Source: an uncultured Eubacteriales bacterium
GTDB lineage: Bacteria > Acidobacteriota > Aminicenantia > Aminicenantales > Aminicenantaceae
Assembly: GCA_964633715.1 (NCBI GenBank)
Contig: CAZWHQ010000004.1
Coordinates: 5,354-69,353, forward strand
DNA: 64,000 nt
Direction of reading: 5' to 3'
Each line of letters starts with the position of its first letter. The stretch's first letter is position 1. A program made the translations under genes and the position numbers. The notes below the pieces were generated by a model. The model saw only the letters and a program-made list of their open reading frames with translations. It was not told the DNA's origin and did not search any database. Below, piece after piece: positions 1 through 11,150 of the stretch.

Positions 1-1864
1 TTCGATAGGTTGTGAGAAAAAACTCTGACTTTTTTTTCTTTATTGTTGATTCAGAGATTTTACTGAATAGAACAGGATTGATGTTGATCTTGGCAGGATG
101 AATTTTTTCTGGAGCCGGCTTCAAAGTTCGGGTGTTGGATTCCTCGCTCCAGAAACCTGTTTTTATGAGAGATTTGAATCCTCCGGAATCTGTGGGGCCA
201 AACATTTGTTCAACTTTTTGAGAATAAAATTCAAAAGTATTTTTGAAGGAAAAGCTCGTGCGAATCTTTCCGCCTATCCTCCTTGCCCATTCGATACAGA
301 CATTGCCGACTTCTTTGGCTTCTCCCAGAGGAAGAAAAGTTGGATTTATGACTTTGCCCACTTCGAAATCAGGAGATCGTAATATTTTAGCTGGGCTTTG
401 AAGAGAGACAACCGGTTGTCTTAAGTTAAGAACAGCTCTTTGATCCAGAGAAGGAGCGTAATCTAGTCCCCAACTTTCGAGATAGGTAGCGGCCGGAAGT
501 ACAAGATCGGCCAACATGGCTGTTTCTGTCATGTGTGTGTCCATAACAACTAAAAAGTTCACTTTTGTTTTATCCTTGAAGAACTGCTGGACAACGCGAT
601 TGTGAGATTCGTCAAACACAGGATTAGTTTTATAGGTTAAATAAATATGAGGCGGTGTATCTGAATGGAGCACATCTATGATCCCATTAAGGTATTCTGT
701 ATTTTGAGTTCCAAAAGTATGGGGAAATATTGTCTGGGGTGTACGGGGGAAAAAAAGTCCTCCTTCTTTTTCCAGATTCCCAACCAACCAATTCAAGAGA
801 AGAATGCTGCTGATACTCCCGACCCCTTGCTGTTGGTCTGCAACACCTCCACCAGCTACGGCAATGGAGGGTTTCTGAGTAGCGAATTCAACGGCAATTT
901 TTTCGATGACAGAAGCTTCGATACCACTTTCTTTTTCAGCCCTTGAAGGAGGGTAATCCGAAAGATGAGCTTTTAAATTTGGTAGAGATGTGTTTGTTCT
1001 TCTGGTTATAAAATCTGAGTCTGTAAGATTATTTTTGAGTATTGTGTGAGCCATAGCCAGGGCCACTATTCCATCGGTCCCGGATTTTACAGGAATCCAC
1101 AGATGACTTTTTGCGGCTGTCTCCGACATGCGGACATCAAAGCTGATAAGTTTTGCTCCTTTTTCCGTTTGAGCTTTTATCAGGCTGCCAGCCACACCGA
1201 TAAATTGGTCGTGATGCGCAAAGGGATTGGCGCCAAAATTGAGGATGGTTCGACTTCTGCTGAAATCCGGAAGAAGAGAAGGCGACTCCGTCATTTGTCT
1301 AAAGGAAAGTTCTTCATTTTTTCTGTTTAGAGTGGAGCGATTTAAAATAGACGAATTCGCTATAGTCCGGATAAAACGATCTAGGAGAGGATCGAATTGT
1401 CCCAGGTCCAAAACAAACCTGGAGTTTTGACTCCCCCCATTCAATTGGCGAATATGGGAGATCATCATCTCATGAGCCTCATCCCATGTGATCCTTGCCC
1501 AGTAGCCTTCTCCTCTTTGCCCGATTCTTTTCATTGGAAAAAGCAGTCTTTCCGGATCATAGACCAGATTTAATCCGGCAATTCCCCTTGCACAAATTCC
1601 TCCCTTGTTAACCGGATGATCGGGATTTCCTAAAATCTGGACACAGCGATCTCCATTTAAGTACGCTAAGATGCCGCATCCTGCCGCACATAAACCACAA
1701 GTTGTTGGAAAAACACGAAGGTTTTTTAAAGACGTTCGGGAGACCGCTTGTCTGGATTGAGTTGATGAATACTCTTGAAGAGCTTTTCCATCAAAGGCTG
1801 TACCGGCTAGACAGGCTAAGCCGGTCTTCATGAACCGTCGTCTCGAATAATTGACTTTATACAT
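1..1864 (-). CDS. Molybdopterin oxidoreductase catalytic subunit (CISM family, PsrA/PhsA/TtrA-like). Partial: the C-terminus lies beyond the window start. Has an N-terminal twin-arginine signal MYKVNYSRRRFMKTGLA followed by an FS0-type CxxCxxxC...C motif (TCGLCAAGCG...C).
   Basis: Manual reverse-strand translation gives one uninterrupted frame from 1864 down to position 1. The six-frame track lists no minus ORF here because it runs off the edge. The Tat motif SRRRF and the Cys cluster typical of the MopB N-terminus are present. The gene sits just downstream of NrfD-like and FeS subunit genes. Confidence 0.8.
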   Translation of the reverse strand, partial: MYKVNYSRRRFMKTGLACLAGTAFDGKALQEYSSTQSRQAVSRTSLKNLRVFPTTCGLCAAGCGILAYLNGDRCVQILGNPDHPVNKGGICARGIAGLNLVYDPERLLFPMKRIGQRGEGYWARITWDEAHEMMISHIRQLNGGSQNSRFVLDLGQFDPLLDRFIRTIANSSILNRSTLNRKNEELSFRQMTESPSLLPDFSRSRTILNFGANPFAHHDQFIGVAGSLIKAQTEKGAKLISFDVRMSETAAKSHLWIPVKSGTDGIVALAMAHTILKNNLTDSDFITRRTNTSLPNLKAHLSDYPPSRAEKESGIEASVIEKIAVEFATQKPSIAVAGGGVADQQQGVGSISSILLLNWLVGNLEKEGGLFFPRTPQTIFPHTFGTQNTEYLNGIIDVLHSDTPPHIYLTYKTNPVFDESHNRVVQQFFKDKTKVNFLVVMDTHMTETAMLADLVLPAATYLESWGLDYAPSLDQRAVLNLRQPVVSLQSPAKILRSPDFEVGKVINPTFLPLGEAKEVGNVCIEWARRIGGKIRTSFSFKNTFEFYSQKVEQMFGPTDSGGFKSLIKTGFWSEESNTRTLKPAPEKIHPAKININPVLFSKISESTIKKKKSEFFLTTYR

Positions 1865-1875
1865 ACAGGTTGCCT

Positions 1876-2772
1876 TTATATGAGCGGGATAAACTCTCCG
1901 CCCAAAACGACTACATATCTCATAAAAAAGATTCCAATAAAAACAAGAATTGATGCGATAATGACTGTGGTTTTTGTTCTGAACCTTGGGATAAAAAGCA
2001 GAAAAAGCGGAACAATTTTTCCGAGGAAATTTTCTATGAGCAAAAACATGAGGCTGAACTGTCCAAAAAGGATCAGATGAGCGGCCGCTTGTGCATCTGA
2101 ATGAGAAATGGACAGCACGATGAGATCGCAGCCAACAAGAAACAGATCAAGTACGATTGCCCATGCCAGCAGTTTTCCCATACTGAAAACTAGATCCTTG
2201 TTTATTGATTTAGATTTAGAAAAGAAAGATTCTTTGATGCTGTAGACCAATATCATTAAAGCGATCCCGGAAACAATGGCTGAGGCAAGAAATAGAATGG
2301 GCATCAATGCCGTATTCCAGAGAGCTCGAGCTTTCCCAAAGGCCAAAATAAAGCCTGTGTAACCATGAACGAGAATCGCTAGAGGAATACCTATAAATCC
2401 AAAAATTCTTGTCGGCTTGTTCTTCTCCTTGAACATAAAATAGGCATAAATGAGACAGTTAATCGGGTAAAGTATAAGGAGGAATGTACCCCATGTGATA
2501 GGGGATGACATGTTAAGATAGGTAAAAAGATGCCAGGCTCTTTGTGGCTGGCCAATGTGCAAAAGGAGAAAGAGAGGAGCAACGATAAGAAGAGTTGTTG
2601 CGAGAACAACGCCTATCCGGGCGATGGGTTTAAATTTTTCCATACCAAAGCAGCAAGCCAGAGTCGAAAGGATGAATGATTCAGCACTTAAACCTGTGAG
2701 GTAAAAATAGATTGCGATAAAAATTCCGAAAGCTTCCTGCTGGAATGTGTTGTATAGAATTTGACTTTCCAC
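1876..2772 (-). CDS. NrfD/PsrC-type integral membrane quinone-interacting subunit (polysulfide reductase NrfD family).
   Basis: 298 aa, about 8 predicted TM helices, hydrophobic NrfD-like pattern, located between the FeS subunit and the molybdopterin subunit. Confidence 0.8.
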   Translation of the reverse strand: MESQILYNTFQQEAFGIFIAIYFYLTGLSAESFILSTLACCFGMEKFKPIARIGVVLATTLLIVAPLFLLLHIGQPQRAWHLFTYLNMSSPITWGTFLLILYPINCLIYAYFMFKEKNKPTRIFGFIGIPLAILVHGYTGFILAFGKARALWNTALMPILFLASAIVSGIALMILVYSIKESFFSKSKSINKDLVFSMGKLLAWAIVLDLFLVGCDLIVLSISHSDAQAAAHLILFGQFSLMFLLIENFLGKIVPLFLLFIPRFRTKTTVIIASILVFIGIFFMRYVVVLGGEFIPLI

Positions 2773-2783
2773 GTTAATCTCTC

Positions 2784-3401
2784 TTAGTCTTCTTTTTCCT
2801 TCTTTGCTTCGACAGTGTCGATATCCAAGTCGATGTAAAATGTGTGAGGAGACGTGCCCATCTCAGGTTTGATCACTTGAACAGCATTTTTTGCGATGGC
2901 TTTAGAGATATCGCTATGAGGATCGTTTCTGTCTCCGAATAAGATAGCTCCTGTGGGACAGGCTAATGAACAGGCTGGCTCCAGTCCTGCATCCACACGG
3001 TGATGACACCAAAAACATTTTTCCGCAATTTTTTTCTTCGGGTGAATGTAGCGGACTCCATAAGGGCAGGACGCCATACAGTATCGGCATCCGATGCATC
3101 TGTGTGGATCAATATAGACGATTCCATCCGGACGTATGATTCCAGCGTTGACTGGACAGACAGTCACACAGATGGGCTTTTCGCAGTTGTTGCAGACGAT
3201 GGGGAGGAAATACTCTCTTGTGTCGGGGAATCGGCCCTTTTCGATTTTTTTCACCCAGCTCCTCCAAACACCCAAGGGAACATCGTTCTCGCTTTTGCAG
3301 GCTATTGCACAGGCCATACAACCTATGCATTTGCGCAGGTCAAAGAGCATCGCTAATCTTTTATTCGAGCTTTTCATCGCTCTTTTCCTTGGATTCCTCA
3401 T
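2784..3401 (-). CDS. 4x[4Fe-4S] ferredoxin-type electron-transfer subunit (PsrB/NrfC/DmsB-like).
   Basis: Four Cys clusters: CIGCMACAIAC, CNNCEKPICVTVCP, CIGCRYCMASCP and CFWC...CSLACP. 205 aa. The true start is probably an internal Met (MKSS or MLFDL), which would remove most of the overlap with the upstream cytochrome gene. Confidence 0.85.
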   Translation of the reverse strand: MRNPRKRAMKSSNKRLAMLFDLRKCIGCMACAIACKSENDVPLGVWRSWVKKIEKGRFPDTREYFLPIVCNNCEKPICVTVCPVNAGIIRPDGIVYIDPHRCIGCRYCMASCPYGVRYIHPKKKIAEKCFWCHHRVDAGLEPACSLACPTGAILFGDRNDPHSDISKAIAKNAVQVIKPEMGTSPHTFYIDLDIDTVEAKKEKED

Positions 3402-4233
3402 GAATCTTTTGAGTGTTTACCCAGACGATCATTTTCTGAATGAACTTTTTACGTTTCTTATTAACGATAAACATACCTAGACCAAGAAGTGAAAAAATGA
3501 CCAAACCACTCCCTACAAAATTGAATCCCGCCCACCGAACGGAATCGAGGTGAATGGGGCCTAAAATTTTACCTCCTTTTTTGCTGACATCATGGCAGCG
3601 AGAACAGTATTCCTTATAATCGCGCTTGGTCCCGTGCGCAGAATCTCCATAATGACAAGAGATGCAAATATTCATGTCGAATTTTTGAGATAAATCACCC
3701 TTGCGGTGTCCAGAAATTTTTCCAAGAGATGTCCCTTTGAAAATTCCTTTGACGCTCACTTCGGGATGGCAGATAGTACATGTCTTGCCAATGTTGGTTT
3801 CATGAACAGAAGATTCTGGATGATCGTGTAGGAGAACAAAATGTTTGGTATGACAGTCATAACACAAAGGGAGAGTTTTTCCCGGTGTCACATCTCTGTA
3901 TTCAAAATGTATGTTTTTTGTATACTCCTCCTCTTCTTCTGGATGGCAGCTTGCGCAGTTTACTTTTTTAAAACCCTCTCTAAAGTGGAGAGAAGGTGTC
4001 GCCTGGACATGACAGTCCACACAGGTCATCCCGATATTAAAATGAACATCCTGAGCCCATTTGGATGGATCGACGTAAAGAGAACGTCTACTCCCATTTT
4101 TAAGAGTTTGAGAGATTTCAGGCTTTTCATGGCATTTGAGGCAGTCTTTGTCAACAATGGATTGTGCATAAAAAGGAAGAATGGACAATCCAAATAGGAG
4201 AAAAACTAAAATCCCAATTGTTTTCAAATGCAT
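3361..4233 (-). CDS. Membrane-anchored multiheme c-type cytochrome with seven CxxCH motifs.
   Basis: Signal peptide, then CLKCH, CVDCH, CASCH, CYDCH, CTICH, CISCH and CSRCH, and a C-terminal TM helix followed by KKRKK. Confidence 0.85.
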   Translation of the reverse strand: MHLKTIGILVFLLFGLSILPFYAQSIVDKDCLKCHEKPEISQTLKNGSRRSLYVDPSKWAQDVHFNIGMTCVDCHVQATPSLHFREGFKKVNCASCHPEEEEEYTKNIHFEYRDVTPGKTLPLCYDCHTKHFVLLHDHPESSVHETNIGKTCTICHPEVSVKGIFKGTSLGKISGHRKGDLSQKFDMNICISCHYGDSAHGTKRDYKEYCSRCHDVSKKGGKILGPIHLDSVRWAGFNFVGSGLVIFSLLGLGMFIVNKKRKKFIQKMIVWVNTQKIHEESKEKSDEKLE

Positions 4234-4324
4234 TTCTGCATGACTCTCATCAAGTTGATTTACCTATCACATTTGCCATGAATAGACAAAATTTGAACAC
4301 AACATCCTTTTGTTGTCAAGATAC

Positions 4325-5152
4325 TCAGAAGGGGACCACAATTCCCCACATGAATTTATAGAATTTATCTTTGTTTCCAAGCTGGCTTAGCCGGATATCC
4401 TTCCAGATGCTTGAGCCTATGGATATCTCTAAGGATTTAAAAATCCGGGTGCGGATAAACAGGGTCGCCAAATAGGTCTGGCCTGATGCAAACAGTTCAT
4501 TAGTCTGTGCAAAAATCTGACCGTGTAAACCAATGCCATTTTCGAACCAGTATCCCAGCCTTATCCCATATTCCTGTTTCACCCTCTCTCCGGACATATC
4601 GAGATAGCTCCTCTGATTGGTATTATGAAGGAACCAAGTAAAAGGTTCGATATAGAGGTTTCCTGTTTCGAATGGAATCCCCAAGCCGATATAATTACGG
4701 TTGAGAAAATAGGCGCCTAAATCCCGTTGACTTTTATGATCAGAATCATGGTTGCTGTCATGCCCGATGTACAGTACAAGATTATCGAAAACTGTCTGCC
4801 TGATGGAAAAATGCCAGTCAAACTTTGTTCTCCGGTTGCCGTCATCATGGGTGACAAGTTGCGCGAGAAATCGTGTCGTTGGCGTAAAATAAATAGTGTT
4901 CTGGAAGCCAAAGTTCCAACGGTCTATGGATCCGGACCTGTCATTGAAACTAGGAAAAGTACTTGGAGACTGGAGATGTCCAAAAAATTCTCCATGAACG
5001 GTTATTTTTTTTCCCAAGCTCAGGCTGTTTTTTTCTGGTTTTGGCCTGAAGATGAAAATCTCTTGGGCAAAAGCCTTTGTGGTGAGATTTAAAGAGACTA
5101 GAAGGAGAATAAGGAAAGGATAAAGAATGTTTTTTTCAAATTTAAAATTCAT
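4325..5152 (-). CDS. Putative outer-membrane beta-barrel protein (signal peptide, C-terminal aromatic residue).
   Basis: Signal peptide ending AFAQ, alternating amphipathic strands, and a terminal ...GIVVPF typical of proteins inserted into the outer membrane by the BAM machinery. Overlaps the upstream TonB-receptor gene by 11 nt, which suggests an operon. Confidence 0.45.
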   Translation of the reverse strand: MNFKFEKNILYPFLILLLVSLNLTTKAFAQEIFIFRPKPEKNSLSLGKKITVHGEFFGHLQSPSTFPSFNDRSGSIDRWNFGFQNTIYFTPTTRFLAQLVTHDDGNRRTKFDWHFSIRQTVFDNLVLYIGHDSNHDSDHKSQRDLGAYFLNRNYIGLGIPFETGNLYIEPFTWFLHNTNQRSYLDMSGERVKQEYGIRLGYWFENGIGLHGQIFAQTNELFASGQTYLATLFIRTRIFKSLEISIGSSIWKDIRLSQLGNKDKFYKFMWGIVVPF

Positions 5153-8123
5153 AGGCCAATCCTAAACGAAAGACACGCGGGGATTGGATTTCTGTTGCAT
5201 AGCGGAGAGGGAATTCAAGGCTTGTCCATTCATTCTCTTCCGTTGCAAGAGATCTATTCGTCATATTAAAACCATCGAGGATGATCCGCAGTCTTGATTC
5301 TCCGATGTTGAACGTTTTTTCAATTCTTATATCAATGGTCCTGTTATATTCGTATCTTGCTTTTCCCCGGGGATGTGCCTGGATATAAAAGGGGCCTTGA
5401 TTCATTCCCGTGACGATAATTTTTCTCGCGAATGGCTGGCCATCATAGTATTTTATGATTCCGGATAATTTGATTCCCAGAGGTGCCAGATAGATCAGTC
5501 CTAGCCTTCCCGTATAACCTCTGTCAAATCGCGGATTTCCTTCTGAATTGATTAATGTATTCGGATTGTCATAAAGCTTTCCGACAACTCCGTCATCATT
5601 TTCCCATTCTGAATTTCCTGGATTAGTCGAACTAATTGCATTGACAGCTGTCAGAGAAAGGAAGAATGTGAAGTGATCTCCATATTTTTTTAATAGGGTC
5701 AGGTCAAGCCCATAATAATAGGACTTCCTGTTATTTGAATCGGCATTTGTGAGCAAATAATAATCCTGCCCCAAGCTCTCTGCTATCTGGTTATAAACAG
5801 TAAAAGTCAGATCATCGTGTGTATCGGGAATCCTGTCATCTCCAACATCTTGGATTTCCACCTCTTCGTACGATGTGTCTGGAACTCCAGTATTGATTGT
5901 TTCGACGAGGTCCTTTGTCCTGCGATAAAATCCTGAAAGAGTAAGGATCCAACCGGGACCAAAAGAATTGACGTAGGCAAGAGCAAGTTCATCGGTAAAC
6001 GGCCGTTTGAGATCCGGATCGATCTGAGAAAATAAAGGGCCTTCCCTCCTAAGAAGGTTTCCCATTTCCTCGGGTTGAAAGATGTTGTCTGAAGATGCAT
6101 CATTCCAAGCATAGATTTCTGTACCAAGAGCATCGCGATTTCCATATGTGAGATAGTTAAGGGGGAGAGTATGAAAGTATCGTGCCGCAGAGAATTTAAT
6201 AACGGAAGTCTTTGTTTCAGTCAGAGGAATTGTAAGACCAAATCGAGGAGAAAGATTGAGCCAGTCTATGTTGTATTTTAATCCGGCGGTGGCCGGTGTG
6301 TCGGGGAACCAACCTCTACTCATGGCGATATTGAATCCGAAATACAGAGAAACTAAATTAGAAAAAGTCCATGCTTCCTGGAGAAAAAAGTTTAAATGAT
6401 AGGACGTTTCATAGTGATGAACTGGAGTGTTGAATAGAGCGACTTGAAGAGGGTGGTTATTGAATGTATAAAGATGCCTGTTGTTTTGAATATCGAAAAG
6501 CGTGGAAGCTGTGGCATATTTGAGCTGTAGACCATACTGCAGTTTATGCATGGCACCAAAAATGGTGGGTAGTAGAGATTGCCCGCGGAGTTTAAAACTC
6601 ATCGTTTGCCGAGTGCTGTCGGTTTGAAAAGGGGCAATGCCGCTGGGTACATGTGTGAATATATCTGCTGTGTAATCTGAGGATAGGTTTTCCTGGAAAC
6701 TAGACCGTTGATCTCCATAAGCAAAGCTAAGACCTGCCTGAAGGATATGATTTGTTCCAAAATGGCCGTTCCAAAACAGCTGGAGGACATGGAATAAATT
6801 TTTTTTATCGGTTGTCGAAGAAAAAGGAATGTCTCGGCCGGCCCCAAAGGTAGGGGAAGATATAGTCTGTCCAGTCCAAAGAAAACGAAAATAGCTGTTG
6901 GCCATCTGGTATTTTAAGCTGAATAAACCTGTGACCACAGAGCTTTCATCTGTTGTCTCGAACTCGGCCAAGTCTCTCCCTATGCTATAGACCGAGGCAG
7001 ATGTCGAGAAATCCAATTTTCCCGGAACGATTGGTCCGGAAATACGGATGTTTCCATCTGTAAAATAATCAAACATGTTGCTTTCGAAAATCCCTTCCCG
7101 TTCCACACGAGGGATGATATTCGTACTCCGGAATTTTTTTGGGATAAAAAATGTGCAAAGACTTCCAGTGAGTTTAGATGATTCTTCCCTTGTTATAAGA
7201 TTAAAATGTCCTCCTGGTGACAGCGCATAAGGCGGATGACCAGCGTTGGTGAGTTGGGAGTACTGAAAACTGAAAAAATCCGGGTAAAAGAGGGGTATTC
7301 CTGACAAAAATGGATCGGTCACATCCATTCCATTGAGCAAGTAAACATTCTGAGTCCAAGAGCTGTTTCCACGCGAACCGAATAGAGCGGGGCGATCTCC
7401 CCAAAGACCTCCAACATCGATACGATTGGTCGTCGCGGAGAGATCCTGGTTTTCGATAAGAGACCAGACATTGTGAGCTGATGGCGTCGAATGGATTTGA
7501 GTTTCGTTCAAAATTGTCTGAAACACATTGTCCGTATAATCGATGGTGGATATAACGGATTCATTCAAATTGTCCGAAGATGTTGAAAGGACAACAGACA
7601 CAAAAAGTGTCTGAGATGGATCCAAAAGTATATTTTCAAGGATCTGAGGCTGGAGGTTTTCTTTATCAAATCGAATGGAGTATCTTCCTGGTTGGAGTCC
7701 GGTTATATGGAAGGCCCCATTTTCATCGGATTGAATGGATTGCTGCCATTCATACTGTTGATGTCTCAATTGGATAAGGACCTGAGGTAGAGGATTTTCC
7801 TCAAAATCCTTGCATGTACCCCAAATTGTGCCAAAATTATTTGCTAATAAAGAGGAATTTAAAAAGGAAAAAAATAGACACAGAACAAAAACAAAATATT
7901 TTTTATAGAAAATGCCTCTCAGCCTGCTGCTCCTCAATTTATAGCCAGTCTTGTTATTTATGACTTTTTTATTCTCACCTGTCAAGAATAAATGAAAAAC
8001 AGCAAGCTTTTCCATGGCCACGATGGATTTGAAGGGGGTCTTTTCTATACAGGTGGGAAAGGATATAATACGGCCACCATTAAGGAGAGTAGCGAACAAT
8101 GGACGAAAAATGTGATATTGCAA
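5142..8123 (-). CDS. TonB-dependent receptor-like outer-membrane protein with an N-terminal carboxypeptidase-regulatory-like (CarbopepD_reg) domain. The real start is probably the Met near 8015 (MEKLAV...).
   Basis: CarbopepD_reg-like segment (GAFHITGLQPGRYSIRF), a long beta-barrel region, and a C-terminal ...RVFRLGLAYEF typical of TonB-dependent receptor barrels. Starting at 8123 as annotated would overlap the divergent lpd start and its ribosome-binding site (RBS). Confidence 0.65.
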   Translation of the reverse strand: MQYHIFRPLFATLLNGGRIISFPTCIEKTPFKSIVAMEKLAVFHLFLTGENKKVINNKTGYKLRSSRLRGIFYKKYFVFVLCLFFSFLNSSLLANNFGTIWGTCKDFEENPLPQVLIQLRHQQYEWQQSIQSDENGAFHITGLQPGRYSIRFDKENLQPQILENILLDPSQTLFVSVVLSTSSDNLNESVISTIDYTDNVFQTILNETQIHSTPSAHNVWSLIENQDLSATTNRIDVGGLWGDRPALFGSRGNSSWTQNVYLLNGMDVTDPFLSGIPLFYPDFFSFQYSQLTNAGHPPYALSPGGHFNLITREESSKLTGSLCTFFIPKKFRSTNIIPRVEREGIFESNMFDYFTDGNIRISGPIVPGKLDFSTSASVYSIGRDLAEFETTDESSVVTGLFSLKYQMANSYFRFLWTGQTISSPTFGAGRDIPFSSTTDKKNLFHVLQLFWNGHFGTNHILQAGLSFAYGDQRSSFQENLSSDYTADIFTHVPSGIAPFQTDSTRQTMSFKLRGQSLLPTIFGAMHKLQYGLQLKYATASTLFDIQNNRHLYTFNNHPLQVALFNTPVHHYETSYHLNFFLQEAWTFSNLVSLYFGFNIAMSRGWFPDTPATAGLKYNIDWLNLSPRFGLTIPLTETKTSVIKFSAARYFHTLPLNYLTYGNRDALGTEIYAWNDASSDNIFQPEEMGNLLRREGPLFSQIDPDLKRPFTDELALAYVNSFGPGWILTLSGFYRRTKDLVETINTGVPDTSYEEVEIQDVGDDRIPDTHDDLTFTVYNQIAESLGQDYYLLTNADSNNRKSYYYGLDLTLLKKYGDHFTFFLSLTAVNAISSTNPGNSEWENDDGVVGKLYDNPNTLINSEGNPRFDRGYTGRLGLIYLAPLGIKLSGIIKYYDGQPFARKIIVTGMNQGPFYIQAHPRGKARYEYNRTIDIRIEKTFNIGESRLRIILDGFNMTNRSLATEENEWTSLEFPLRYATEIQSPRVFRLGLAYEF

Positions 8124-9509: not shown

Positions 9510-11150
9510 TTATTTGATGTAGCCAAGGGCCTTGAGCATTTCTTCCACGTCTTTTCCGATCTTTACTTCTTCTTTGTTTTGCAAAATATTTCGAGAGAAT
9601 TCATTTAATTTATTTTCGAGATTTGACATTTTGGCTGACTGTTCTTCTTCGGAATAGACATTTATTTTCTCATCAAAATCGTTTTCGAGATCATAGAGTT
9701 CATAGTTTTGATCTCCAGGGGTGAAAATCAGGTGCCAGGGATATTGTAAAAGGGCAAACTTATCCTTCATCGCTTCTGGCTTGTACGTTTCTTGGAAAAT
9801 AACGTCCTGCGATTCCCTTTTCAATTTATTGAGGTTTCTTCCCAAATAATCAGGTGTATTTCTAAATTTGACTATGTCCATGACTGTTGGGGCTATGTCA
9901 AGAAGCGTGACGTATTCGTCAACCGTAGTATTCCTTTTTGAACGGAGAGGGTTGTAGATAATGAGAGGAACTTTCATATAGACATTCTGGAGGAAATGGA
10001 TATGTCCAAAATGCGCATCGCCGTAGGCCGTGTTGTATTCTCCCAAACCTTCGCCATGGTCCCCGACGACCAGAATATGGGTTTTATCCAAAAGGTCGAG
10101 ATCTTTGAGTTTGGCCAGAAGTTTTCCGAATTCGTGATCCATGTACTCGACTTCATTCCTGTACAATTCCCGCCATCTCTCTAAGGTATGGTAGGATTTT
10201 CCTCGGAATTTCATCTTGATTTGCCGGGGTGAAGAACGATTGAACAGGGCAATTTTTGCGTTTTTTCTGAAGTAGAAAGTGTTACTATCCTTCCGGGTCT
10301 CCCAACCCAAATACGGATCGATGTTTATATTCTTATCATCTGGAGGAACTGAAAAATCGAGTGTATCCAATCTGGCCGCAAATCTGTCCGGGTCTTCCAT
10401 ATAGTCATTGTTTATGTTGAATGTGACTACATTATTGCCGGATTTGAGATGGAGTTCGATTTCGTTATTTTCAAGTTTTCCCAGGTTGTATGTTCCCAGT
10501 ACTTTGTCATTGAGAGATACTGTCAACTCTGCAGGCATTCCTGGTGGATAATAGGGATCGTGGGGATCTGAATAGTGCACCCACATGAAAAATTTTTTCT
10601 CTTCTTTACTGTCCAGCCAACGGAATACGCGCTCGTTGACTTCTCCCGCATTCAGATACCATCTATTTTTGGGGAACTCGTCAAAATAAACGTCAAAACC
10701 CTTAGCGAGACCAAATTGAGATTTTAGGACACCCAGAGAAATGAAGGCGGATGTCTGGTATCCATTTTTCTGAAACATTTCTGGAAAAGAAGGATGTTTT
10801 TTTCTCTCTGCTATGATTTGCCCATTGTTGTAGTTCTTTATTTCGTGCGGAGGTTCAGAAAAAAAAAGGGATGCGTGCGAAGGGAGCGTTATGGGGATAA
10901 GGCTGAAACAGTTTTCGTATCGTGTTCCCTGCTGCGCCAAAGAATCGATATTTGGCGTAGAGGCATTCTGTGTTTTGTAAGCACTGATAAAGTCGGCCCT
11001 CTGTGTATCCAGTGTGATAAGGATGAAATTGAGATTCTCTTTGGCCGTACGGCAGCAAAACAAACAAAGGAGTAATACAGCGCAAGAAAAAATCCAAAAT
11101 AAACGTCCAAAAAATTTTGGAACAAATGTGATATATTTTCTATATAACAA
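9510..11150 (-). CDS. Sulfatase-family (alkaline-phosphatase superfamily) hydrolase or transferase with an N-terminal membrane/signal segment.
   Basis: N-terminal LITLDTQRADFI metal-binding motif and a later GDHGE-like motif (VVGDHGEGLGE) characteristic of sulfatase/phosphoethanolamine-transferase-like enzymes. Confidence 0.7.
   Translation of the reverse strand: MLYRKYITFVPKFFGRLFWIFSCAVLLLCLFCCRTAKENLNFILITLDTQRADFISAYKTQNASTPNIDSLAQQGTRYENCFSLIPITLPSHASLFFSEPPHEIKNYNNGQIIAERKKHPSFPEMFQKNGYQTSAFISLGVLKSQFGLAKGFDVYFDEFPKNRWYLNAGEVNERVFRWLDSKEEKKFFMWVHYSDPHDPYYPPGMPAELTVSLNDKVLGTYNLGKLENNEIELHLKSGNNVVTFNINNDYMEDPDRFAARLDTLDFSVPPDDKNINIDPYLGWETRKDSNTFYFRKNAKIALFNRSSPRQIKMKFRGKSYHTLERWRELYRNEVEYMDHEFGKLLAKLKDLDLLDKTHILVVGDHGEGLGEYNTAYGDAHFGHIHFLQNVYMKVPLIIYNPLRSKRNTTVDEYVTLLDIAPTVMDIVKFRNTPDYLGRNLNKLKRESQDVIFQETYKPEAMKDKFALLQYPWHLIFTPGDQNYELYDLENDFDEKINVYSEEEQSAKMSNLENKLNEFSRNILQNKEEVKIGKDVEEMLKALGYIK

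Follow-up and report, generated by a model that had tools for sequence, protein, structure and literature searches.

In the polysulfide-thiosulfate reductases PsrABC and PhsABC (Thermus thermophilus, PDB 2VPW-2VPZ), a Tat-exported subunit of the MopB family with the FS0 cluster motif CX2CX3CX27C is combined with a four-cluster PsrB-like subunit and an 8-helix NrfD/PsrC membrane subunit. QrcABCD, the menaquinone reductase of sulfate reducers (Qrc), and alternative complex III (ACIII; ActABCDEF) combine an anchored multihaem cytochrome with a MopB-like subunit lacking the molybdenum (Mo) ligand, a four-cluster protein and an NrfD-type subunit. Oxidoreductases that link the electron transfer flavoprotein (ETF) to menaquinone (EMO/EtfD) have been characterised as stand-alone proteins acting via the quinone pool, and that of Syntrophus does so alongside a formate dehydrogenase in the periplasm. 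Here we analyze a locus at the start of a 64,000-nt stretch of DNA from an uncultured member of the Aminicenantes (the window; positions 5354-69353 of contig C4, in an assembly of 4.33 Mb that is 91% complete) in which elements of all these systems occur together. A heptahaem c-type cytochrome, an iron-sulfur (FeS) protein, an NrfD protein, a MopB protein, a beta-propeller, a hexahaem cytochrome and an EMO form one conserved and apparently undescribed module of uncultured Aminicenantes. This module is a variant of CISM/NrfD complexes (CISM, complex iron-sulfur molybdoenzyme) that is Psr-derived, Qrc-like in logic and EMO-coupled. We lean towards reading the seven genes as an EMO-coupled, Psr-derived periplasmic redox module from which the neighboring pair of outer membrane (OM) genes is separate.

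The module shares with PsrABC/PhsABC the Tat-exported MopB subunit with FS0, the four-cluster subunit and the NrfD subunit of 8 helices, and differs from them in that (i) Asn replaces Cys173, Gly replaces Arg332 and Leu replaces His145, (ii) the gene order is B-C-A, and (iii) the genes are linked to 13 c-type haems, a beta-propeller and an EMO. With Qrc and ACIII it shares the anchored multihaem cytochrome, the MopB-like subunit without a Mo ligand, the four-cluster protein and the NrfD-type subunit. In contrast to the module, in which FS0 is invariant, QrcB and ActB1 contain no redox cofactor (for QrcB, PMC13059093), and Qrc and ACIII use 10-helix NrfD proteins (QrcD and ActC; PMC6303296), whereas the NrfD protein of the module has about 8. 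Moreover, ActB fuses the MopB-like and FeS parts, and ACIII has a second NrfD-like protein, ActF, whereas the module has separate genes and a single NrfD. The gene order also differs from that of Qrc and ACIII, and the heptahaem cytochrome, the propeller and the EMO are additions of the module.

Two further systems invite comparison. DsrMKJOP and HmcABCDEF are likewise two-lobed: one lobe, with a cytochrome c in the periplasm, an FeS protein and an NrfD protein, is joined to another that consists of a cytochrome b of the NarI type and a CCG protein in the cytoplasm. Unlike the module, they contain neither a MopB protein nor a propeller, and no dsr context is evident in this organism; scores against the NCBIfam Dsr models all fall below the cut-offs (DsrO, 184 bits against 200; DsrP, 86 against 350; DsrK, 72 against 400; DsrM, 22 against 300). 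The OmeA/OmeB/HupX core of the organohalide-respiration complex of Dehalococcoides is, by description, similar in using QrcBCD-like MopB, FeS and NrfD-like subunits as a protein wire, and differs in having no cytochromes and no EMO and in its coupling to two enzymes, a hydrogenase and a reductive dehalogenase. This QrcBCD-like core reportedly works without quinones (PMC6303296), which is relevant here because menaquinone synthesis is not evident in the genome of the window.

Gene content and conservation of the module

Six open reading frames (ORFs), identified by ORF listing and translation, occupy window positions 2-8123 on the minus strand. The original prediction, made from the letters of the window, had described six co-directional genes separated by tiny gaps or overlaps. 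The common direction holds, and all junctions are overlaps or 11-nt gaps with the exception of the 91 nt between P0005 and the cytochrome gene, a gap in which a scan for promoters and terminators gave nothing convincing. The redox part of the block begins with the heptahaem cytochrome P0004 (3361..4233, minus strand), which has seven CXXCH motifs, a Sec signal and a C-terminal transmembrane helix (residues 239-257). The four-cluster [4Fe-4S] subunit P0003 (2784..3401, minus strand) has 16 Cys in four cluster motifs and matches PsrB (2vpw_B, E = 1.6e-52); its best family models are TtrB, DsrO and NrfC (Pfam/NCBIfam). P0003 has no signal of its own and likely starts at Met9, near position 3377. 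The NrfD/PsrC-type membrane subunit P0002 (298 aa; 1876..2772, minus strand; Pfam NrfD, E = 5.4e-48) has about 8 transmembrane helices by hydropathy and is 54-77% identical to its counterparts at related loci, while a PDB sequence search with it returned no match. Of the MopB-family subunit P0007, the window holds the first 621 of 754 codons (2..1864, minus strand; Pfam Molybdop_Fe4S4 and Molybdopterin), including the Tat motif S-R-R-R-F-M-K and the intact FS0 cysteines C56, C59, C63 and C91. These data bear out the anchored seven-haem cytochrome, the combination of FeS, NrfD and Tat-exported, FS0-bearing MopB subunits, and the Psr/Qrc/ACIII-related composition in an unusual cytochrome-FeS-NrfD-MopB order that had been recognized in the original prediction.

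Extending the contig, a step suggested at that time, reframes the unit as EMO-linked. The full P0007 gene (contig C4:4953-7217) runs about 400 nt past the window start and adds a Molydop_binding domain at the C-terminus of the 754-aa protein. The co-directional block then continues on the same strand of the contig with three further genes, which encode a secreted periplasmic beta-propeller of 431 aa, a hexahaem cytochrome of 181 aa that is anchored at its N-terminus and has six CXXCH motifs, and, as the seventh module gene (C4:1103-3097), an EMO/EtfD-type protein of 664 aa. A threonine aldolase gene on the opposite strand marks the end of the block. The propeller has no Pfam match at E up to 10; its structural model is confident (pLDDT 89.7) and resembles only generic TolB and S9-peptidase propellers (query-normalised TM-scores 0.3-0.54), so that no function can be deduced from the model.

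The seventh gene product is predicted to be an EMO/EtfD-type ETF:(methyl)menaquinone oxidoreductase. It matches M. smegmatis EtfD, a cryo-EM structure (PDB 9OJN, chain 9OJN_A), with E = 9.7e-127, and unites in one chain a five-helix NarI-like haem-b domain, two CxxCxxCxxxCP motifs for cubane [4Fe-4S] clusters and two CCG motifs for non-cubane clusters (Pfam Nitrate_red_gam, Fer4 and CCG). This is the three-domain architecture reported for EtfD (PMC13083937) and for the ETF:methylmenaquinone oxidoreductase of S. aciditrophicus, SaEMO (bioRxiv 10.64898/2026.08.18.745454). The haem-b histidines are shared as well: the protein has His70, His201 and His219, and the spacing of 18 residues between His201 and His219 equals that between His233 and His251 of SaEMO. 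Unlike the characterised EMOs, the EMO of the module is operon-linked to a hexahaem cytochrome, the gene of which always precedes the EMO gene, and to a ligand-less MopB module.

The propeller is the most specific marker of the module, with only 254 relatives in the database, and with its help 51 loci were retrieved from species-representative genomes. Each of the 25 loci with enough flanking sequence carries the full set of seven, and the same seven genes occur in one complete Gemmatimonadota chromosome. Haem counts are also kept, with seven CXXCH motifs in 32 of 33 heptahaem homologues and six in all 44 hexahaem homologues. Partial sets in a similar order are found in metagenome-assembled genomes (MAGs) of Deltaproteobacteria/Desulfarculaceae and of Dehalococcoidia, where contigs end or single genes differ. 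Genes of beta-oxidation lie directly upstream of the module in two of these lineages: acyl-CoA dehydrogenase and ETF-beta/alpha at the Gemmatimonadota locus, and thiolase, 3-hydroxyacyl-CoA dehydrogenase and acyl-CoA dehydrogenase in one Deltaproteobacteria MAG. The genome of the window, too, has an etfA gene, outside the block, in keeping with a link to beta-oxidation. Searches of the literature on Aminicenantes with molybdopterin, NrfD or multiheme proteins, and on ETF:menaquinone oxidoreductase with NrfD and multiheme proteins, found no account of the module.

Two distant versions depart from this scheme. One (L011:3555-7136) has an extra MopB gene (704 aa) and a separate NarI-like gene upstream and lies among corrinoid methyltransferase genes, and the other (L024:8037-8984) has a Band-7/SPFH gene between the NrfD and MopB genes and no propeller. 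The names that close homologues carry place the organism of the window in the Aminicenantes. Many contigs with the Aminicenantes-type module at 50-83% identity (L031, L033, L039, L040 and others) bear the title 'uncultured Eubacteriales bacterium' or 'Clostridia' in third party annotation (TPA) records; these titles are probably placeholders or wrong labels.

The MopB subunit has lost the metal ligand and kept FS0

In pairwise HMMER alignments, Asn180 of P0007 stands opposite Cys173 of PsrA and the ligand Cys of ArrA. The ligand column was validated with E. coli enzymes, in which it holds Sec140 of FdhF, Cys179 of NapA and Ser205 of DmsA (precursor numbering), and a Glu in NuoG, which has no cofactor. 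In 121 family members with at least 49% identity, this column holds Lys (98), Asn (15) or Arg (6) and never Cys, Sec, Ser or Asp, whereas the four FS0 cysteines are invariant in all 121. Two further active-site residues of PsrA are replaced in P0007: the position of Arg332 corresponds to Gly339/Gly340 and that of His145 to Leu152. An Arg occupies the former position in 21 of 36 Cys-bearing relatives.

To place P0007, 150 representatives were drawn from an exhaustive HMMER search, and trees were built with FastTree (132 rows) and with IQ-TREE (45 rows, rooted on FdhF and NapA). Both recover the P0007 clade, with an SH-like support of 99 for 44 representatives in the FastTree analysis and an SH-aLRT of 100 with 18 of 18 rows in the IQ-TREE analysis, and Cys and Sec are absent from the ligand column in all of its members. 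Its sister group consists of Cys-bearing Psr/Phs-like proteins with an 'HTSICE'-type motif. The original prediction had considered that the catalytic subunit might both lack the Mo-coordinating residue and cluster with QrcB/ActB. The residue is indeed missing, and the clustering is with the Psr/Phs-like proteins instead. None of the NCBIfam equivalog cut-offs is reached by P0007 or by ten sampled relatives, and in all of them PhsA is the best model, ahead of QrcB.

These observations bear on whether the module is a scaffold in the style of Qrc/ACIII, the main alternative to an EMO-coupled module with a working MopB subunit. The scaffold would contain a dead MopB protein without Mo or tungsten (W), FS0 would be a structural relic, and the cytochromes, the FeS protein and NrfD would do the chemistry of a cytochrome c:quinone oxidoreductase or its reverse. 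QrcB and ActB set precedents for this arrangement (PMC6303296, PMC13059093), the composition of the module mirrors that of Qrc/ACIII with its anchored hexahaem cytochrome, MopB-like, FeS and NrfD proteins, and the hexahaem cytochrome of the module weakly matches ActA and QrcA. The loss of the Mo ligand and of the equivalents of Arg332 and His145, together with a ligand column that is unconstrained across the deep clade, is also what such a scaffold predicts. Against it stand the invariance of FS0, given that QrcB is free of cofactors, the 8 rather than 10 helices of NrfD, and the failure of every Qrc model to reach its NCBIfam cut-off (QrcA, 25 of 180 bits; QrcB, 190 of 440; QrcC, 112 of 400; QrcD, 52 of 570). 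ActB chains match P0007 with E-values of only 4e-6 to 3e-4. Judged by its sequence, P0007 is neither QrcB nor ActB.

Individual positions outside the ligand column also argue against a scaffold. The positions that are conserved in the canonical enzymes (the DPR and PGTD motifs, D442, D453, P457, E463, N631, N642 and T678) are all kept in the P0007 clade, whereas E. coli NuoG and the clade of a second, Qrc-like ligand-less copy in the genome of the window have lost many of them. Given that the cofactor-less NuoG has lost positions that P0007 retains, the pterin pocket of P0007 appears to be still under selection and the protein looks cofactor-competent. Only individual positions, with NuoG as a control, were informative; averaged conservation of the canonical positions lies at 0.70-0.77 in every group and does not separate ligand-less from canonical clades. 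Taking both sides together, we regard a Qrc/ACIII-style scaffold as rather unlikely. A complex prediction for MopB (residues 46-614) with the mature propeller gave a score of 0.00 in a run without controls and counts neither for nor against binding.

The outer membrane genes lie outside the module

Upstream of the heptahaem cytochrome gene lie P0005 and P0006. P0005 (275 aa; 4325..5152, minus strand) is a small secreted protein with a signal peptide and Phe as its last residue; it has no Pfam match at E up to 10 and no PDB sequence match, is presumed to be an OM protein, and has homologues in only 3 genomes out of a phylum-wide sample of 301. P0006 (5142..8123, minus strand; maximal ORF of 993 aa) combines a CarboxypepD_reg domain (E = 2.9e-11) with a TonB-dependent-transporter fold. 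Translation probably does not begin at the TTG at 8123, which lies in an overlap with the divergent lpdA gene; in the database the gene is called from Met37, at approximately position 8015, and the true start probably lies there or after it. A Pfam search at E up to 10 yields CarboxypepD_reg alone, with neither Plug nor TonB_dep_Rec and no match for the barrel part, while relatives of P0006 and a paralogue in the same genome carry PF25183 (OMP_b-brl_4). The AlphaFold (AF2) model of P0006 (pLDDT 71.8) matches the TonB-dependent transporters YddB, FusA, PqqU, Cir and FecA with E-values of 1e-25 to 1e-17 and target-normalised TM-scores of 0.6-0.7 over 840-930 columns, the best match being YddB (6ofr, E = 8.7e-26). 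The model thus agrees with the TonB-dependent-like receptor named in the original prediction and identifies P0006 as an import-type TonB-dependent-transporter-fold protein with a putative plug-like region. We also considered P0006 as an Mtr-like porin-cytochrome conduit and rejected this on the basis of the fold and of the independent occurrence of the OM genes and the cytochrome module.

To compare the occurrence of the two OM genes, 20 Aminicenantes loci were used in which lpdA and the cytochrome gene are both present. Between these two genes lie both OM genes at 5 loci, only the large one at 6, only the small one at 5 and neither at 4. This interval can be described as a variable 'outer-membrane slot' (loci L034-L081), and the seven-gene module is constant throughout. 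Another family of the same class has the seven module genes and neither OM gene, and both OM genes are missing from all module loci outside the Aminicenantes, including Gemmatimonadota. Conversely, two genomes from the same taxonomic order have lpdA, the barrel gene, the small OM gene, the EMO gene and the aldolase gene, and miss the other six module genes. P0005 and P0006 are an adjacent, separately evolving uptake-type pair outside the conserved module.

The original prediction had proposed an envelope-spanning unit in which the OM receptor and the small barrel would serve the cytochromes and the MopB protein, either to reach insoluble or large acceptors or to import a substrate. All genes are co-directional and at least one OM gene lies between lpdA and the cytochrome gene at 16 of the 20 Aminicenantes loci, as such a unit would predict. 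This proposal is nevertheless very improbable in view of the presence of the module without both OM genes in four Aminicenantes and in all non-Aminicenantes loci, the presence of the OM pair in the two genomes that miss six of the seven module genes, the 91-nt gap before the cytochrome gene, the fold of P0006, which is that of a transporter with a putative plug-like region and not of a porin-cytochrome conduit, and the location of the P0006 paralogue beside a sulfatase. Moreover, synteny extends to lpdA and the threonine aldolase gene, so that the neighborhood may simply be inherited and the adjacency of OM genes and module within the class is not independent evidence of function.

Other features of the neighborhood concern the OM genes themselves. 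A sulfatase gene (window 9510-11150, Pfam E = 2.1e-38) lies two genes from P0006. The sole paralogue of P0006 in the genome (C16:46838-49573), which carries PF25183, is directly followed by a gene for a sulfatase-TPR protein. The transporter-sulfatase pairing may be the real functional context of P0006. A P0005 homologue at G247:C3:219088-219884 (locus L028) is interrupted by a TGA in frame, which divides it into two reading frames. The genome in question also misses six of the seven module genes, and the homologue may be a pseudogene.

The second ligand-less, FS0-bearing MopB protein of the genome belongs to a cluster on contig C32 (C32:20827-28426; L026:6827-14426) with the Qrc gene order: a c3-like cytochrome (178 aa), MopB (768 aa), FeS (236 aa) and a long NrfD (510 aa), then a c-type cytochrome (390 aa) and a 408-aa protein with a dihaem cytochrome c domain (DHC) and a porin domain. 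With this DHC-porin fusion, a Cyc2-like cytochrome-porin, the genome offers a better candidate for an envelope-spanning system than the block in the window. Homologues of cyc2 in Aminicenantes have been reported by FeGenie (PMC7005843).

Discussion

Combining the composition of the locus, topology signals, conservation, the loss of the metal ligand and of the Arg332/His145 equivalents, the retention of FS0 and the independence of the OM genes, we infer an electron path for the EMO-coupled module. In this model, acyl-CoA dehydrogenases would pass electrons to ETF and from there to the cytoplasmic Fe-S domain of the EMO and through its haems b across the membrane. The electrons could reach the periplasmic side either via menaquinone that is oxidized at NrfD or directly via the adjacent hexahaem cytochrome. 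The four-cluster protein would then deliver them via FS0 to the MopB subunit, which probably holds a bis-pterin guanine dinucleotide (bis-PGD) site without a protein ligand, comparable to arsenite oxidase. Arsenite oxidase has a bis-PGD site of this kind, in which no protein residue serves as the ligand. Together with the propeller, the MopB subunit would act on some periplasmic acceptor, and the heptahaem cytochrome would open a lateral route to further redox partners in the periplasm. Reverse flow is equally allowed by the model, in which case periplasmic donors would drive the reduction of enoyl-CoA, comparable to enoyl-CoA respiration in Syntrophus. As an alternative route, the module could function as a quinone-independent protein wire comparable to the QrcBCD-like core of Dehalococcoides (PMC6303296).

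Several observations weigh against this EMO-coupled model. Firstly, the two genomes that keep the EMO without the other six module genes imply that the EMO can work alone, and its adjacency to the module could be partly historical. Secondly, ETF genes are not next to the module at the Aminicenantes loci. Thirdly, profile searches of this genome placed MenB, MenD, MqnA/D and MqnC below the cut-off or found them absent; a MenA-like prenyltransferase falls just under its cut-off, and among the menaquinone genes tested only MenG/UbiE passes. As menaquinone synthesis is not evident, the quinone step is uncertain, although the absence of these genes is not established because the genome is only 91% complete. 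Fourthly, the pterin-binding reading of the conserved MopB positions is based on conservation patterns and not on a contact map, and two relatives without FS0 also keep most of the canonical positions. FS0 itself can persist without function, as does cluster N7 of NuoG. Finally, the presence of some OM gene upstream of the module at 16 of 20 Aminicenantes loci makes a loose functional tie possible.

The genome of the window has an EMO, two NrfD complexes and genes for Complex I despite no evident synthesis of the menaquinone ring.

The scenario in which the module is a canonical terminal reductase (Psr/Phs/Ttr/Arr/Srr) for polysulfide, thiosulfate, tetrathionate, arsenate or selenite accords with the best matches of P0007 (PhsA, 286 bits; PsrA 2vpw_A, E = 5.4e-41), with those of the FeS subunit (PsrB/TtrB) and with the annotation of relatives as thiosulfate or polysulfide reductases, but is hardly credible given that neither the ligand Cys nor either of the two PsrA active-site residues is kept, that no equivalog cut-off is reached (for PhsA, 286 against 694 bits) and that the clade is separate from its Cys-bearing relatives.

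Building on the EMO-coupled model, a bolder and on balance doubtful proposal is that the ligand-less, FS0-bearing MopB clade would be a class of active Mo/W-bisPGD enzymes without a protein ligand. Together with the propeller, the MopB protein would then be the periplasmic partner of the EMO, possibly in a quinone-independent complex, by which strictly anaerobic Aminicenantes and some Gemmatimonadota and Desulfobacterota might shed or take up electrons of beta-oxidation.

Abundant in anoxic sediments, Aminicenantes have mostly been portrayed as fermenters. An EMO of beta-oxidation that is wired to 13 c-type haems and a Psr-derived module suggests that they have a respiratory or redox-loop outlet for electrons from fatty acids and amino acids. 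The analysis also bears on annotation: the members of a deep, multi-phylum, ligand-less clade are annotated as 'polysulfide/thiosulfate reductase' or 'selenocysteine-containing dehydrogenase', and because the metal ligand is missing they cannot be those enzymes. Metabolic reconstructions that count these proteins as sulfur-cycling genes are probably wrong. Finally, the position of the clade, intermediate between true molybdoenzymes and the QrcB/ActB scaffolds that are free of cofactors, makes it a useful example for studying how a catalytic subunit turns into a wire.

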